From Candidatus Burkholderia verschuerenii (GTDB taxonomy: Bacteria; Pseudomonadota; Gammaproteobacteria; Burkholderiales; Burkholderiaceae), in NCBI RefSeq assembly GCF_001189365.1, contig NZ_LFJJ01000125.1:1-16008 (forward strand): DNA of 16,008 nucleotides, in the 5' to 3' direction. Under the pieces are notes generated by a model. The model ran no database searches. It had not been told where the DNA came from and worked only from the letters and a program-made list of their open reading frames with translations. Shown here piece by piece: positions 2,442-16,008 of the stretch. Every line of letters starts with the position of its first letter. The stretch's first letter is position 1. A program made the translations under genes and the position numbers.

Positions 2442-3427
2442 CTATTCGGTGACCGTATCGACGTCGCTTTCCTCGCCCGATGCCGTGACGGCGCGCTTGC
2501 GCGTCAGCGACGCCGACACGCTCGACATCAGTTCGCGCAGCCACGCGACATCGGTCGGCTGCTCGGGCTGCGGCAGTGACAGCTGATAGCACTTGATGCG
2601 CGGAAACGGCACCAGCGAGTCCATCACCGCGAGCGGCAGCATCGACGCGTAATGCTGCGCGAAGCGGCGCGGCGCGGTGAAGATCAGATCGGATTGCAGC
2701 AGCACCTGCGGCACCAGCCCGAAGTAGGGGATCGTCGTCACGATGCGCCGTTCGATGCCCGCGCGCGCCAGCCCTACGTCGATCGGATGCCGCTTGCCGC
2801 CGCTGTACGGCGTCGGCGCGAGATGCGCGGCGCGCGCGTAGCGTTCGACCGTCAGCGGTTCGCGCGTGAGCGGATGATCGGCGCGCATCAGGCAGACGAA
2901 AACATCCGCGAACAAATCCTGCCGGTCGAAACGCGGTTCCGGCTTGGCTTGGTCCAGTTGGCGACCACCATCAGATCGATCTCGCCTTCGTCGAGCGCGC
3001 GTTCGTGATCGCGCATCGGATTCAGCGATTCGATTTCCAGACGCGCGTTCGGCGCGGCATCGCGGAAAGCGGCGACCAGCGTCGGCATGAAGAAACCATT
3101 GAGGTAATCCGGCGCGGCGACGCGGAACGTGCGGCGCGAACTGGCGGCGTCGAAATCGCCGTGCGGCGTCGCGACGAATTCGACTTCCCGCAAGGCGTGC
3201 TGGGCGGGCGCGAGCAGCGATTCGCCGTATTCGGTCGGCACCATGCCCTGTTTGCCGCGCACGAGAATGGGATCGCCGAGAATCTCGCGCAGCCGCCGCA
3301 GCGCCGTGCTGATCGCCGGTTGCGTCTGGTTCAGCCGCTGCGCCGTCTGCGTGACGCTGCTCTCGAGCAAAAGCGTCCGCAGCACGCGGATGAGCCAGAT
3401 ATCGAGTGAGTCGGCGGGGTCGGTCAT
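2442..3427 (-). pseudogene. LysR-family transcriptional regulator, disrupted by a 5-bp tandem duplication (frameshift) near 2941-2952
   Basis: The N-terminal HTH (MTDPADSLDIWLIRVLRTLLLESSVTQTAQRLNQTQPAISTALRRLREILGDPILVRGK...) is in the frame of ORF 2888..3484. The C-terminal substrate-binding domain (..EPRFDRQDLFADVFVCLMRADHPL...VTTIPYFGLVPQVLLQSDLIFTAPRRFA...) is in the frame of ORF 2442..3497. The junction sequence ggcttggcttgg (minus strand aagccaagcc) is a GGCTT x2 repeat. Deleting one copy gives W-T-K-P-E-P-R-F-D in frame. Confidence 0.8.
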
Positions 3428-3666
3428 ATCGGTCGAACGATGGAAAACGGATGGCCGCCGACCTTTGCCGACCTGCGCGCCCACATCTCACGGACACAAT
3501 GCGCGCGCGGACGAAGCGTGCGATCGCACGTCGTCCGTCAACAAATAGTCACACAGCCTGATGCGAGGTTAAACGCTTTCCGCCATCCGGCCCATAGCGC
3601 ACGCCCTATGCACGGCATTACCGGCGCGCGTCGGTCGGCTTGCCGCCACGTTTGCGCCACGTTGCG

Positions 3667-7147: not shown

Positions 7148-9269
7148 ATGACAAGATTCGCGCGGATCCAGACTCTCAGGCGACAGGCGACGACCCTCGC
7201 GCTGCTCGCGACAGCAGCCACCTTCGCCGGATGCCACGGCGGTGACGACAACAGCGGCCCGCCGACCAACACCCTGCCGAGCTTCGTTTCCGGCTCGGTG
7301 AAGATTCAAAGCTACGACGGCAACACCGACGACTTGCTGACCGCCGGCCTCGGCAAGAGCGGACTGGCGTCGTCGACGGCGCCGGCCATCGCCAATGCGA
7401 CGTCGCCGACGGCGGCCGAATTGCGACGCCTCGCGATCTACTCGAACTATCGCGCGCTCGTCGACATGACGGCGAACGGCGGCTACGGGCGCTTCTGGGG
7501 GCCGAACGTCGATCTGAACGGCAACGACACGCTCGGCGAAGGCAAGATCGCCGGCAAGGAATATCTCGCCTACGCCGACGATGGCAGCGGCAATCTCAAC
7601 GTCAGTCTGATGGTACAGATTCCGTCGAGCTTCAACGCGGATCAGCCGTGCATCGTCACGGCGACGTCGTCGGGCTCGCGCGGCATTTACGGCGCGATAT
7701 CGGCGGCGGGCGAATGGGGACTCAAGCGCGGCTGCGCGGTCGCCTACACCGACAAGGGCAGCGGCAACGGCGCGCAGAATCTCACGACCAATCTCGTCAC
7801 GCTGATCGACGGCACGCTGTCCAACGCGACGCTCGCGGGCAATACGGCGATCTTCAAGGCGAACGTGAGCAGCGCGGCGCTGGCGTCGTACAACGCGAGC
7901 TTGCCGGCGCGTTACGCGTTCAAGCATGCGCATTCGCAGCAGAATCCGGAGAAGGACTGGGGCAAGAACACCTTGCAGGCGATCCAGTTCGCCTACTGGG
8001 CGCTCAACGATACCTACGGCGCGCTCAACAACGGCTCGACGCATGCCGTGCGCTACGAGAAAGGCGGCATCACGACGATCGCGGCATCGGTCAGCAACGG
8101 CGGCGGGGCATCGCTGGCGGCGGCCGAGCAGGATACCGACGGCTGGATCACGGCGGTCGTGGTCGGCGAGCCGCAGATCAACCTCAATCTGCCGTCGCAG
8201 GTGGCGGTGTACGAGGGCAACACGCCGGTCGGCTCGTTCGGGCGGCCGCTCGCCGACTACATGAGCCTCGCGAATCTGCTGCAACCGTGCGCGGCGCTGG
8301 CGCCGGCGGCGGCCAACGCGCCGAATCTGAGCGCCTTGCCGGTCGCGACGACCGCGGCGATCCGCACGGCGCGATGCGCGTCGCTGGCGCTGGGCGGCGT
8401 GATCGGCGGTGGCGATACCACGACGCAGGCCAACAACGCGCTGGCGGCGCTGCATCAGGCGGGCTACGAAGCCGATTCCGACACGCTGCACGCGCCGATG
8501 TGGGACTCGCAGGCCGTTGCCCGCCGTCGCCGTGACTTACGCCGACGCGTACATGAAGGCCAGCGTCGTCGATAACCTGTGCAACTTCAGCTTCGGCACG
8601 ACCAATCCGGCGACCGGCGCGGCGGGCGTGACGCCGCTGATTTCGCCGATGCCGACGGTCTTCGGCAACGGCAACGGCGTGCCGCCGACCAACGGCATCA
8701 ATCTGGTCTACAACGCGGGAACGAGCGGCGCGGCGGATCATCGTCTGGCGACGGCCGATGCCAGTTTCACCGGCGCGGCTTGTCTGCGCGAACTATGGAC
8801 GACCGGCAATCCGACGATGGCGGCGAGCGTCAACGCGATCCGCGTGAACGCCAATCTGCGCGGCAAGCCGGCGATCATCGTGCAGGGGCGCTCGGACGCG
8901 CTCGTGCCGATCAACCATGCGTCGCGTCCGTATCTCGGCGCGAACCGGATGGCGGAGGGCAGCAAGAGCCAGTTGTCGCTCTACGAGATCATGAACGGTC
9001 AGCACTTCGACGCGTTTCTGGGCGTGGCCGGTTTCGATACGCGCTTCATTCCGGTCCACTATTACAACCTTCAGGCGCTGAACCTGATGTGGGCGCATCT
9101 GAAGAACAACGCGCCGCTGCCGCCGTCGCAGGTGGTGCGCGCGGTCGCGCGTGGCGGCTCGCCGAGTGCCGCGCCCGCGCTGACGACGGCGAATCTGCCG
9201 GCGATCGCGGCCAGTCCGGGCGCGAATGCGATTCTGGTGAATGGCGGGGTGGTGAACGTGCCGAGGTGA
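7148..9269 (+). pseudogene. D-(-)-3-hydroxybutyrate oligomer hydrolase (PhaZ2/PhaY-type), lipoprotein; frameshift near 8515-8525
   Basis: GGAG sits 7 nt upstream of ATG 7148. Lipoprotein signal with lipobox LALLATAATFAG|C. The N-terminal 475 aa (ORF 7148..8575) match 3HB-oligomer hydrolase: LLTAGLGKSGL, ELRRLAIYSNYRALVDMTANGGYG, CIVTATSSGSRGIYGAI..EWGLKRGCAVAYTDKG, and the lipase-box-like ASVSNGGG. The C-terminal 250 aa continue in ORF 8409..9269 (PAVAVTYADAYMKASVVDNLCNFSFGTT...). The frame switch sits in caggccgttgCCCgccgtcgccgtg. Deleting one C gives ..DSQAVAAVAVTYADAY.. in frame. Confidence 0.8.
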
Positions 9270-9385: not shown

Positions 9386-10150
9386 ATGGACTCACACCCA
9401 ATCACATTTTCGTTGAGCGACGAATCGCCGGGCTACGCAATCAGTCCGGCGCGCGTCCCGTTGGGCACGCTCACCGCATTCGCGAGCGACGTGCAGGAAT
9501 TTCTCCTCGGCAGCGAGAGGTCCGTAAGTGCCGAATTGGAGGTCGCCGTGGTCAACGGATCGCTGGCGATCGAAGCGCGCAATGCCGATTCGCCAGGGCT
9601 GCTGCACGATTTAAAACGACTTGCCAGCGGATTGGATCTGACAAGGATCGATCCGAAACGTCGGTCGGTCATCGAGCGATGGCAATTGACGGCACGCGAC
9701 GCAAAATCGTGGAAACTGGAAATTAGTGGTGCGGAAAGGACGACGATTGTGGTTTCAAATGTGACGGATTTTCATTTCGCCGACCACCATCAGTTGGTTA
9801 ATGTCGAGCGTTATATTCGCGGTGAAGTGGTCAAGTTGGGCGGAGCAAGGGAGCCGACTGCCCGCATCCGTTTGGCCAACGGAAAAATGCTGACCGTGCA
9901 TGCAGAGCGCGAGACCATACGCGCCGAAACTGAAAATCACCTTTATAGACACGTGCATGTCCGAATTCGAGCAAAGCTTGATATTGAAACAGGTGAATTG
10001 AGTGACGCACGACTAGTAGAGTTCGTCGATTATTCCCCTGGGTTCGATGAACAGGCATTCGAAAAATTGACTTCGGAAGGCACGGAAGCATGGAAGGATG
10101 TAGATGACCCGGCTGAATGGGTTCGAAATTTGCGGGGAACGTCTGAGTGA
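9386..10150 (+). CDS. Hypothetical 254-aa protein with no recognisable domain; first gene of a low-GC two-gene island
   Basis: First in-frame ATG after an upstream TAA. The ORF lies in a ~48% GC region against ~65% flanks. Its stop TGA (10148-10150) overlaps the GTG start of the downstream PIN gene (GTGA). Weak RBS. Acidic C-terminus. Contains the sequence RAETENH (Rx5H). Confidence 0.6.
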   Translation: MDSHPITFSLSDESPGYAISPARVPLGTLTAFASDVQEFLLGSERSVSAELEVAVVNGSLAIEARNADSPGLLHDLKRLASGLDLTRIDPKRRSVIERWQLTARDAKSWKLEISGAERTTIVVSNVTDFHFADHHQLVNVERYIRGEVVKLGGAREPTARIRLANGKMLTVHAERETIRAETENHLYRHVHVRIRAKLDIETGELSDARLVEFVDYSPGFDEQAFEKLTSEGTEAWKDVDDPAEWVRNLRGTSE

Positions 10151-10647
10151 ATTCCGTCTTGCTTGATACCAGCTTCCTGATTTGCTTGAGTGATTCGAAT
10201 CGCTCGCATCATGCTCTTGCGAAGACTTACTTTCAGCGATTTATCGCCGAAGAAATCACGATGTATTTGTCGACCATCGTCATTAGCGAGTTCGAGGTTA
10301 AACAGCGAATATCGAGTTTGGGCCTTTCGAATTTTATCGTTCTACCGTTTAATTACGAAGACGCGTTACTGACAGCCAGGCTCTTCAACGAAATGCACGG
10401 CAATCGGCAGGAATCGGACGCGCGTGTCGCCATCAAAGACGACGCCAAGATACTCGGCCAATGCGTCTTCGCGGGTATAACGCATTTTGCGACGGACGAT
10501 GATAAATGCGTCCGGCGAATGAAAGCGGTGCGTGCAGGCGGTTTAGCCACGGACTTGCCGCATGCGATAGACCTGCACGAGCCTTTCTGGGAAGGATGGT
10601 TCACGGAAAATAATCAAGGCAATCTTCCTTTTGACTCGAATGCTTAG
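10147..10647 (+). CDS. PIN-domain (VapC-like) ribonuclease
   Basis: N-terminus VNSVLLDTSFLICL (the PIN motif LDT[NS]xLI with the first catalytic Asp). Later acidic residues occur at spacings typical of PIN (ISEFEV, ATDDDKC, D near 120). GTG start overlaps the upstream stop by 4 nt. Low GC. Confidence 0.7.
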   Translation: MNSVLLDTSFLICLSDSNRSHHALAKTYFQRFIAEEITMYLSTIVISEFEVKQRISSLGLSNFIVLPFNYEDALLTARLFNEMHGNRQESDARVAIKDDAKILGQCVFAGITHFATDDDKCVRRMKAVRAGGLATDLPHAIDLHEPFWEGWFTENNQGNLPFDSNA

Positions 10648-12749: not shown

Positions 12750-14450
<1,701 letters not shown>

Positions 14451-14512
14451 GCTGGCTTTATCGCCGGTTTTACATGGGCGCGGGTCTCGCGAGAGGCTTG
14501 CGTCGTGCCGAA

Positions 14513-14543
14513 GAAAAAAACCCGCAGCGATGCGGGTTTTTTT
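14513..14543. terminator. Bidirectional rho-independent terminator between groEL and the convergent GNAT gene
   Basis: AAAAAAA-CCCGCA-gcga-TGCGGG-TTTTTTT: a 6-bp GC stem flanked by an A7 run and a T7 run. Confidence 0.85.
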
Positions 14544-14608
14544 CGTTTGGAGCGGCCTGCGCGGCGTGGCGTCCGATTTGATCGATGTTCGTTAAATCGA
14601 TCGCTTCT

Positions 14609-15043
14609 GGCATGGACATTCCTCATCAAAGTCATCCAGTTCCCCCTCTCGCCCTGCGCGACGAAACCGTATGGTTCAAGAAAGGGGAGACACGCTTTCG
14701 GCACACGGGTGAGCAACGCCGCCCGATGCTCGTCCGCATAGGTCAGCACCGCGTCGCGCAACACTCCGAAGATGCCGGCGCCGCGTGCTTCAGGGCGCAT
14801 GTAGCCCTGAAGCAGATGAAAACGATCGCCCAATTCTTCCACGCTGATGAAGCCCAGCACCCGTGACGCTTGCGTGATTTGCGCGACAAACCAGCGATAG
14901 CGCGGTCCGTCGTCGAGGGGGTAGCCGCCACACTCTCGACGGACCGAGCGGCTGACGAAAAATCGTCCCATGTGCGCGAAGAATTTTGCCTCGTCGTCGA
15001 TGGAGCGCCATCGCGAAAAGCAGCAATCTTCCACCCGGATCAT
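14609..15043 (-). CDS. GNAT-family N-acetyltransferase; the homology-supported part is given and the stop codon is not resolved
   Basis: ATG at 15043 overlaps the TGA of the upstream IbrA-like gene (ATGA). GNAT motif A is YMRPEARGAGIFGVL. The frame stays open past the domain, straight through the groEL terminator and into groEL (ORF 14240..15043). No in-frame stop precedes the terminator. Confidence 0.65.
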
Positions 15044-16008
15044 GCGCCTGTCTCTTCAGGTGCGCCCCACGCTTGAATGTCCTGTCTGGCGAAACCGAAA
15101 GACAGCGAGCGTGCCATATCCTGTTTTAGAAGTGACAAGGCCACACGGCGCCAGGATGGTTGCGCGCGTCGATTCTCCAGCGCGGGTGTGCCTGCGTCGG
15201 GCCAGGCGTCGAGCGGATAGCCATGGCTCGCCCACCATTGGACAAAGCGTTCGATGCGACGTGCATAGCGACCCTTTGCCCCTCTGGCATGCTGCCGAGC
15301 TGGAAATGGGCATAGGCCTTCCAGGTAGCGAAGGAAGACGGTAGTCCTGTGCCACCGCGATAGCCGAGAAACCGTTGGCGACAATAGCGCGCCGCGTAGT
15401 TGGCGCCAGCAACACGGGTCACCACCCTGAACCAGGTTTCCGGCTCGATGCGATGGAACAGGTCCAACCCTTTGCGCTGGTCATCACCGTAAGGCTGGCA
15501 GATGCGCATTTGCGAAAATGCGATGCCTGCCCAATGCATGTCATCGTACAGCCGGTTGTACGCGTGATGTTTCTCATGCGTGTAGCGCCATAGATCGCCG
15601 AATTTCCAGTCATAGATCGGGAAGAAGCTGACGGCCTGGTCCTCGCTGTCGTGACGCGAACTCCATGCGATCGGCGCGGCGCGACCGGGCGGCGTCCATG
15701 CCCGCCGTTTTCCCGGCCGCCTTGGCCGGATGGCGCGGTATCGGTTCAGGGATTCATCGGCACGAATGCCCACCAGGAACGCGGTCGGAACATCACGAGC
15801 CAACCACGCATCGAAGCCGGCCACGAATTCTTCGAACTCCATGCGGAATCGGTAAAACGGGAAGACTGAAGCATCGCGTATCAAGTTGTGTGCGTCAAGT
15901 TGTGCAGAAATCGGATGCCGGTGGTTTCAGTTGATCCTTCTGTGCGACGTGCGGCGCGAAGGGCGTAGCCCGCAGCGCCGAACGCCGCGCGGCCGCTATG
16001 CAGCAGCG
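15040..16008 (-). pseudogene. PAPS-reductase-like / DUF3440 (IbrA-like) protein, 5'-truncated by the window edge, with a frameshift near 15285-15300
   Basis: The upstream frame (ORF 15126..15884, open from ~15955) carries PAPS-reductase-like motifs (FLVGIRADESLNRYRAI, FFPIYDWKFGDLWRY, TWKAYAHFQLGSMPE). The DUF3440-type C-terminus (RYARRIERFVQWWASHGYPLDAWPDAGTPALENRRAQPSWRRVALSLLKQDMARSLSFGF) is in the frame of ORF 15040..15384. The two frames overlap across 15126-15384. The upstream frame has stops at ~15955 and ~16000, so the N-terminal P-loop part is missing or also shifted. Confidence 0.6.

Follow-up and report, generated by a model that had tools for sequence, protein, structure and literature searches.

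The window, i.e., the whole stretch of DNA analysed, is the entire 16,008-bp contig of 'Candidatus Burkholderia verschuerenii', an obligate leaf-nodule symbiont. On the minus strand of its right end it carries what is very probably the remnant of a three-gene operon, ibrA / GNAT / ibrB, which was pseudogenised recently: an insertion sequence (IS) adjoins ibrA, a frameshift of 1 nucleotide (nt) runs through it, and ibrB is lost at this place. The locus belongs to a known family, as an ordinary pseudogene; it is neither a working defence module nor a remodelled one. With high probability it is non-functional as a whole. An earlier note, prepared from the DNA letters and their open reading frames (ORFs), had proposed a decaying or remodelled DNA-modification or defence locus; the decay is supported, the remodelling into a defence module is not.

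The GC-rich minus strand between 15884 and 15040 holds two overlapping ORFs, 15126-15884 (252 amino acids, aa) and 15040-15384 (114 aa). Joined across a frame change, both yield a reconstructed protein of 279 aa. Two Pfam domains are recognised in this protein. DUF3440 (PF11922) is matched over profile positions 1-104 of 182 with E 1.7e-23 and a score of 83.8 bits, the cut-off being 25; of PAPS_reduct the C-terminal third is matched, at positions 103-162 of 175 (E 3.4e-6). A homologue search of 5.8 billion proteins returned thousands of IbrA homologues of about 408 aa; the best one, P0001 from Pseudomonas sp. RW10S2 (408 aa), shares 83% identity (E 5e-153). Judged from these sequence matches, the similarity to IbrA-type proteins is far beyond chance, and the earlier proposal of an IbrA-like PAPS-reductase/DUF3440 gene is confirmed. 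The databases already contain a 238-aa entry with 99% identity (KND59490.1, P0013), named 'Co-activator of prophage gene expression IbrA [Candidatus Burkholderia verschuerenii]'. This 'IbrA' is a fragment of a pseudogene.

The ibrA/ybdN-type remnant extends from 15883 to 15040 and corresponds to approximately residues 128-408 of 408, i.e., to the C-terminal third of PAPS_reduct plus DUF3440. With tblastn, residues 128-331 of P0001 are found at 15884-15273 (frame -2) and residues 329-403 at 15282-15058 (frame -1), each with 83% identity. Residues 1-127 of the homologue have no tblastn match anywhere in the window. In homologues these missing residues contain the PP-loop motif VAFSGGKDSS. Compared with a genuine IbrA/YbdN protein the remnant possesses neither the N-terminal SGGKDS PP-loop nor a complete PAPS_reduct domain, and a single ORF of about 400-420 aa is replaced by two frames with an IS upstream. 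DUF3440 is located C-terminally of PAPS_reduct as in the family, though it is interrupted by the frameshift. The ibrA remnant is a family member by descent but a pseudogene.

The frameshift is situated at 15268-15275 on the minus strand, where the window has 8 nt (AGGGTCGC) in place of the 9 nt of its relatives (CGG ACG GTG, encoding R-T-V). This net deletion of 1 nt is evident from the DNA alignment with the Pseudomonas locus L001 and from the switch of frame in tblastn. All of 20 species-representative loci (L011-L029, L031) align to the 408-aa protein from residue 1 to about 396-408 without a frame change. The earlier note had placed an internal frameshift at 15285-15300; a frame change is indeed needed to follow the homology, and its site is located about 15-25 nt further 3'.

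Upstream of the remnant the DNA is of a different origin. The stretch 15884-16008 is the terminal 125 bp of an IS256-family element, oriented on the minus strand, and includes the last three transposase codons plus stop (GCT GCT GCA TAG, 16007-15996). With an annotated IS256-family element on plasmid p4 of Caballeronia grimmiae it shares 92% identity, at the end of that element, and with a copy in p3 of Burkholderia sp. SFA1 89%. In a three-way alignment the IS homology begins exactly at 15884, which sets the switch at 15883/15884. The transposase of C. grimmiae ends with ...RAAA* and is of the Mutator type (Transposase_mut, PF00872, E 6.8e-148); the minus strand of the window starts with AAA-stop, just as the transposase C-terminus. 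The IS256 membership is founded on this PF00872 transposase and on the terminal sequence of the element; of the IS256-family elements with their Mutator-type transposase the window shares only the terminal 125 bp and the transposase C-terminus. The C. grimmiae copy has an imperfect inverted repeat of about 44 bp. The contig terminates 125 bp inside the IS, and the other IS end is outside the contig. Draft assemblies typically break at repeats.

These findings change the interpretation of the region 15884-16008, which had been taken for the stop-ridden 5' part of the gene. It is the end of an IS256-family element, and the stop noticed near 16000 is the transposase's own. In the ibrA frame stop codons are present at 15998-15996 and 15929-15927, whereas the one reported at about 15955 does not exist in any minus-strand frame. 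The 10-bp direct repeat described next to these stops is real (TCAAGTTGTG, 15881-15890 and 15895-15904). Its core AGTTGTG, twice present and accounting for 7 of the 10 bases, is intrinsic to the IS terminus and is found in the C. grimmiae copy as well, and the extra TCA arises at the junction. As the larger part of it already occurs twice within the IS terminus, we rejected the repeat as a target-site duplication or a signature of slippage. Positions 14568-14579 match the IS end (15908-15919) in inverted orientation over 12 nt, which was judged a chance event: we estimate that chance alone gives about 3 such pairs in 1.6 kb, and 12 pairs were reported.

The IS256-family element adjoins ibrA at the equivalent of codon 128, and the locus therefore no longer has the PP-loop (SGGKDS), any native promoter or the start codon. 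The DUF3440 part is broken by the 1-nt deletion. A functional IbrA cannot be made from this locus because the PP-loop and the start are missing and DUF3440 is broken.

The second gene of the remnant is uninterrupted over its 147 conserved codons at 14603-15043 on the minus strand. It is connected to ibrA by a 4-nt ATGA overlap at 15040-15043 (ibrA stop TGA 15042-15040; start ATG 15043-15041). The coupling to a downstream GNAT gene, which was recognised earlier, is thereby verified; the same overlap exists in the loci L001, L005 and L008. The protein is 64% identical to the middle protein of L001 and 71% to P0121. In an alignment of 16 family members it keeps all 29 invariant residues, and it carries EARGAGIF, with an R-G-A-G stretch, at the position of the family-conserved EARGxGLF. 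The Pfam GNAT score of the window copy (17.2 bits) is below the cut-off of 23.6 bits, and the relative P0137 attains 32.2 bits. An AlphaFold model calculated from the family alignment has a pLDDT of 88.3 and a pTM of 0.83. A Foldseek search with it against the PDB retrieved GNAT acetyltransferases with a probability of 1.00, E values down to 1e-8 and TM scores up to 0.74; 484 PDB chains were found at E<=0.001, and the best 50 are all GNAT-type acetyl- or acyltransferases. According to the model, the middle gene product has the GNAT alpha/beta fold.

A profile search of 1.84 billion representative sequences identified 384 relatives of the GNAT-like protein, some of them above the Pfam GNAT threshold. 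One metagenomic protein, P0139 (588 aa), combines PAPS_reduct, a part of DUF3440 and, at residues 449-586, the GNAT-like domain of the cassette. Whether a natural fusion of IbrA and GNAT or the product of a read-through call, it supports a functional link between the two.

Of the third gene almost nothing is left. At 14603-14613 on the minus strand a stub of 11 nt, ATGCCAGAAGC (Met-Pro-Glu-Ala), represents the start of ibrB; the IbrB proteins of relatives begin with MPEA. The DNA alignments to the L001 and L005 cassettes end at 14603/14601. A tblastn search of the whole window gave no ParB-like match, and the 150 nt past the stub align with the relatives' cassettes or the IS256 end no better than shuffled sequences. 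Directly downstream of the remnant on the same strand, where an operon of the IbrAB/YbdNM type has a ParB_N/IbrB-like gene, only ATGCCAGAAGC is present. At this locus ibrB ends with codon 4, where the sequence immediately 3' of groEL takes over, and this break also took away the stop codon of the GNAT gene.

As the break after the ibrB stub removed the stop of the middle gene, its ORF now runs to 14240, antisense to groEL. The latter (12810-14450, plus strand) is an ORF of 546 aa with a GGM tail which converges on the remnant and which, from its typical sequence, we take to be GroEL. Between the two lies a bidirectional terminator-type hairpin, formed by a perfect inverted repeat of 14 nt at 14513-14544 (GAAAAAAACCCGCA/TGCGGGTTTTTTTC) which the run-on GNAT ORF includes. 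It is located about 58 nt past the ibrB stub and 63 nt after the groEL stop and is flanked by A and T runs; because these runs pair into the stem, the hairpin was missed in a scan for consensus terminators. A consensus scan for sigma-70-like promoters found none in 14300-16008. The GNAT ORF would read through the groEL terminator hairpin, and its transcripts probably lack a stop codon. The GNAT gene too is likely to be non-functional.

The original design of the locus is apparent from its relatives. We inspected the neighbourhoods in Pseudomonas (L001), Paraburkholderia (L002), an uncultured Caballeronia metagenome-assembled genome (MAG; L005), Ralstonia (L006/L007) and Lysobacter/Solilutibacter (L008), and scored 24 species-representative genomes by tblastn. 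A ParB_N-like gene is positioned downstream of ibrA on the same strand in all 27 loci with downstream sequence, including ybdN-ybdM of Escherichia coli K-12. Between ibrA and ibrB a GNAT-like gene (146-185 aa) is inserted in 22 of 24 loci of the close subfamily (at least 65% IbrA identity), and the order ibrA-GNAT-ibrB is seen in the Pseudomonas, Paraburkholderia, Caballeronia, Ralstonia and Lysobacter neighbourhoods and in 18 of 20 species besides these. The middle gene overlaps both neighbours, the ibrA stop with its start, often as ATGA, and the ibrB start with its end. E. coli ybdN-ybdM has the same order without GNAT. Thus the GNAT-like gene, thought at first to be an unusual partner, is a regular one. 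The ParB-like gene, which had been expected upstream beyond 16008, is therefore to be expected from about 14610 leftwards, inside the window, and this site holds the 11-nt ibrB stub.

Two loci of the close subfamily, L016 (Achromobacter sp. Marseille-Q4962) and L018 (Bordetella trematum), have 71-72% IbrA identity and ibrB about 65-130 nt after ibrA without a GNAT-like gene. Loss or gain of the middle gene has therefore taken place inside the subfamily. The cassettes of Pseudomonas and Paraburkholderia have a gene for a DUF3363 protein or a TraI_2-type relaxase as a neighbour (L001 7017-8999; L002 8392-10275), which hints that the cassette travels on integrative conjugative elements.

A partner of IbrA exists elsewhere in the genome. 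A search with a Caballeronia IbrB retrieved KND62070.1 (P0287), a protein of 185 aa annotated as 'IbrB [Candidatus Burkholderia verschuerenii]' on a separate contig of 75,536 bp. The two nearest IbrB proteins share 82% and 78% identity with it. Every family-invariant residue is retained in KND62070.1, of which the annotated form starts about 27 residues late. Among the proteins retrieved in the IbrA and GNAT homologue searches, Ca. B. verschuerenii is represented by no further IbrA or GNAT-like sequence. A rearrangement with its breakpoint in ibrB may have divided the cassette, or the genome may contain another, incomplete copy. The notion of a ParB-like partner out of view is correct in that an IbrB-like protein is encoded on this other 75.5-kb contig, and incorrect in that it is unlinked to the locus in the assembly. 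Given its existence, 'ibrB deleted' has to be read as 'ibrB absent from this locus'. The locus is not rescued by it.

The damage is of recent date. The ibrA fragment keeps 77 of 78 positions which are conserved to at least 97% in 90 full-length homologues. A leave-one-out comparison gave a mean of 1 change per homologue at these positions, i.e., the fragment is no worse than a typical intact homologue. The lesions are recent because the surviving codons are nearly undegraded, 77/78 positions in ibrA and 29/29 in the GNAT gene. A related case is the uncultured Caballeronia MAG (GCA_940590075.1, L005 1843-4132), in which the same cassette has 79% DNA identity to the window. Whereas ibrB is intact there, ibrA is disrupted by several stops and at least 4 frame changes; the cassette has an IS21 IstB gene as its neighbour. 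This looks like parallel decay in a related lineage. Genomes of leaf symbionts have a low coding capacity, and in some Psychotria symbionts IS elements make up as much as about 10% of the assembly (bioRxiv 10.1101/2022.09.27.509721). The lesions described here would fit the IS expansion and the relaxed selection documented for leaf-nodule Burkholderia symbionts.

Several points weigh against a recently pseudogenised operon. The frameshift is known from one draft assembly only and could be a sequencing error; the IS junction and the loss of ibrB hold independently of this. The contig ends within the IS, and a simple insertion, with codons 1-127 beyond the element, is indistinguishable from an IS-mediated deletion. 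The survival of an IbrB-like protein with all invariant residues elsewhere in the genome means that the supposed deletion of ibrB may equal a split of the cassette. The GNAT gene is intact over its conserved length, from which a residual function would be possible. Finally, the mechanism considered below for the intact cassette is an analogy: the similarity to DndC and BrxP is sub-threshold in PADLOC and NCBIfam, and the PDB contains no structure of a close homologue.

The last but one of these points leads to the alternative which fares best, albeit as an unlikely one, namely that ibrA is dead and the GNAT gene is expressed and selected alone, transcribed from the IS or from the ibrA remnant, with KND62070.1 perhaps kept in a similar manner. 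The uninterrupted 147 codons with 29 of 29 invariants and a confident fold are in its favour, as is the retention of every invariant IbrB residue in P0287. Yet the ibrA fragment is equally well preserved (77/78), and preservation thus shows recency only. Further, the GNAT gene is without its native stop and runs through a terminator hairpin, no sigma-70-like promoter was detected in 14300-16008, and the family is always encountered alongside ibrA and ibrB, once even fused to IbrA, which suggests no role alone. A more far-reaching version, which we consider equally improbable, is a remodelled cassette in which selection keeps the GNAT-like gene and KND62070.1 without IbrA. More broadly, the intact operon would be an undescribed acyl-transferring variant of IbrAB/YbdNM through which neighbouring genes may be controlled by a modification of DNA or of a factor bound to it. 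The pointers are the GNAT-like gene in 22 of 24 close relatives, the single fusion P0139 and YadA-type neighbours in some genomes.

Considerably less probable is a DNA-modification or defence module with a ParB-like partner just upstream, a newly recruited GNAT and a remodelled locus. The domain similarity is genuine and an IbrB-like gene does exist elsewhere in the genome. But upstream is the end of an IS256-family element, ParB-like genes are downstream in 27 of 27 loci, GNAT is standard in 22 of 24 close relatives and the ibrB start stub is present at the expected downstream site. To about the same small degree we would credit an assembly or sequencing artefact, in which the gene is intact, the frameshift is erroneous and the contig either stops at a repeat or is a chimera with an IS end. 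A draft assembly of a symbiont from plant tissue and a contig which ends 125 bp into a repeat invite such a suspicion. Against it, the ibrA/IS junction is sharp and internal to the contig, the ibrB breakpoint is internal too, and the documented erosion is matched by three independent lesions and by the second frameshifted gene of the window. The weakest alternative, a programmed -1 ribosomal frameshift joining the two ibrA frames, can practically be dismissed: the short A/G-rich run CAAAGGG at the shift site might suggest it, but the heptamer is out of the X XXY YYZ zero-frame register, GGG is not among the usual slippery triplets, the species-representative relatives have an ibrA in a single frame whereas that of L005 is multiply frameshifted, no shift conserved in related symbionts with a downstream structure was seen, and the N-terminal catalytic part is absent anyway. 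We therefore retain a recently pseudogenised ibrA / GNAT / ibrB operon as the explanation.

Elsewhere in the window a 3HB-oligomer hydrolase gene (PF10605; 7148-9269, plus strand) is split in two frames, 7148-8575 matching profile positions 3-430 and 8409-9269 positions 431-687. The split implies that the reading frame shifts near 8520 and that the window contains a second pseudogene. An ORF of 652 aa at 430-2388 on the minus strand combines an AraC-type Cupin_6 domain (aa 2-185) with an SPFH/Band_7 domain (aa 414-596) and is devoid of the AraC helix-turn-helix (HTH); a deletion or the loss of a stop seems to have fused two genes here. A LysR-type ORF at 2442-3497 (minus strand) matches only the substrate-binding domain, from profile position 65, with no match to HTH_1, and may be a damaged gene. 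At 10147-10647 (plus strand) a weak, sub-threshold PIN-domain match (E 7e-4) follows an ORF of 254 aa without a family match; the two may represent a toxin-antitoxin-like pair. Scans of the window for tRNAs and Rfam families were empty, and no att-like tRNA site was found.

What might the intact cassette do? IbrA/IbrB of E. coli ECOR-9 and YbdN/YbdM of K-12 have the same arrangement, a PAPS_reduct plus DUF3440 protein followed by a ParB_N-like protein with an overlapping start. YbdN and YbdM of K-12 are 37 and 52% identical, respectively, to the relatives used here. The E. coli pair is without the middle GNAT, whereas in the window the first 127 residues of IbrA and a linked ibrB are missing and ibrA is frameshifted. 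The three-gene cassettes of Ralstonia, Achromobacter, Bordetella, Pseudomonas, Paraburkholderia and Lysobacteraceae are homologous gene for gene, with 65-83% identity for IbrA, 45-71% for GNAT and a shared ATGA. These cassettes are complete (about 408 + 146-185 + 208-211 aa); the window has two thirds of gene 1, gene 2 without a stop and 11 nt of gene 3. To our knowledge, no biochemical function is known for IbrAB/YbdNM. PDB sequence searches gave no solved close homologue of IbrA or IbrB. The ybdNM genes form an operon repressed by CitR/YbdO (PMC9068703).

The neighbourhood of some cassettes contains genes for YadA-type trimeric autotransporters, directly upstream in Ralstonia (L006/L007 3068-6499) and directly downstream in two Bordetella species (L028 7725-8414; L029 7684-8370). 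The only activity reported for IbrAB is that of an activator of prophage eib genes, which encode YadA-type adhesins. The YadA-type genes beside the cassettes echo this IbrAB-eib link, which is suggestive.

A comparable combination of a PAPS-reductase-like PP-loop enzyme with a ParB/Srx-like DNA-binding protein is realised in DndB-DndC of the DNA phosphorothioation system and with BrxP of type 4 BREX. DndB is the ParB/Srx-like DNA-binding partner of DndC. The similarity of IbrA to DndC and BrxP models is weak. With the DndC equivalog TIGR03183 a score of 12.6 bits is obtained, against a cut-off of 290.4; the PADLOC DndC model matches only with E 1e-5 and no stretch passes, and DUF3440 is absent from DndC. 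In PADLOC-DB 2.0 the GNAT-like and IbrB-like proteins have no matches and IbrA only the weak ones to DndC/BrxP, i.e., these models do not assign the cassette to a defence system. Genes for DndA, DndD, DndE, restriction enzymes or PglZ are not found beside the cassettes of relatives (L001, L002, Ralstonia and Lysobacter/Solilutibacter neighbourhoods). BrxP and DndC have been discussed in PMC12839542. The same paper describes DpdB of the Dpd 7-deazaguanine DNA-modification system, a ParB-like NTPase which works with a DNA-modifying enzyme. Neither a TGT-like DpdA nor a DpdC is present here, and the analogy to Dpd is one of logic only.

By analogy with these systems we tentatively suggest a quite possible scheme in which, in the intact cassette, a ParB/Srx-type DNA-binding NTPase targets a PP-loop adenylating enzyme to DNA or to a DNA-bound substrate, with the GNAT adding an acyl group. 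The readout known so far is an altered expression of neighbouring or prophage genes, e.g., of YadA-type eib adhesins.

The remnant adds one datable case of IS-driven gene loss in a leaf-nodule symbiont, which matters little for the window itself. Two by-products of the analysis are more general. The ParB-like partner is located downstream of the PAPS-reductase gene, and a large proteobacterial IbrAB subfamily possesses a dedicated middle gene with a GNAT fold. The conserved acyltransferase partner implies nothing on the function of the remnant; it is a concrete clue to the intact IbrAB system.

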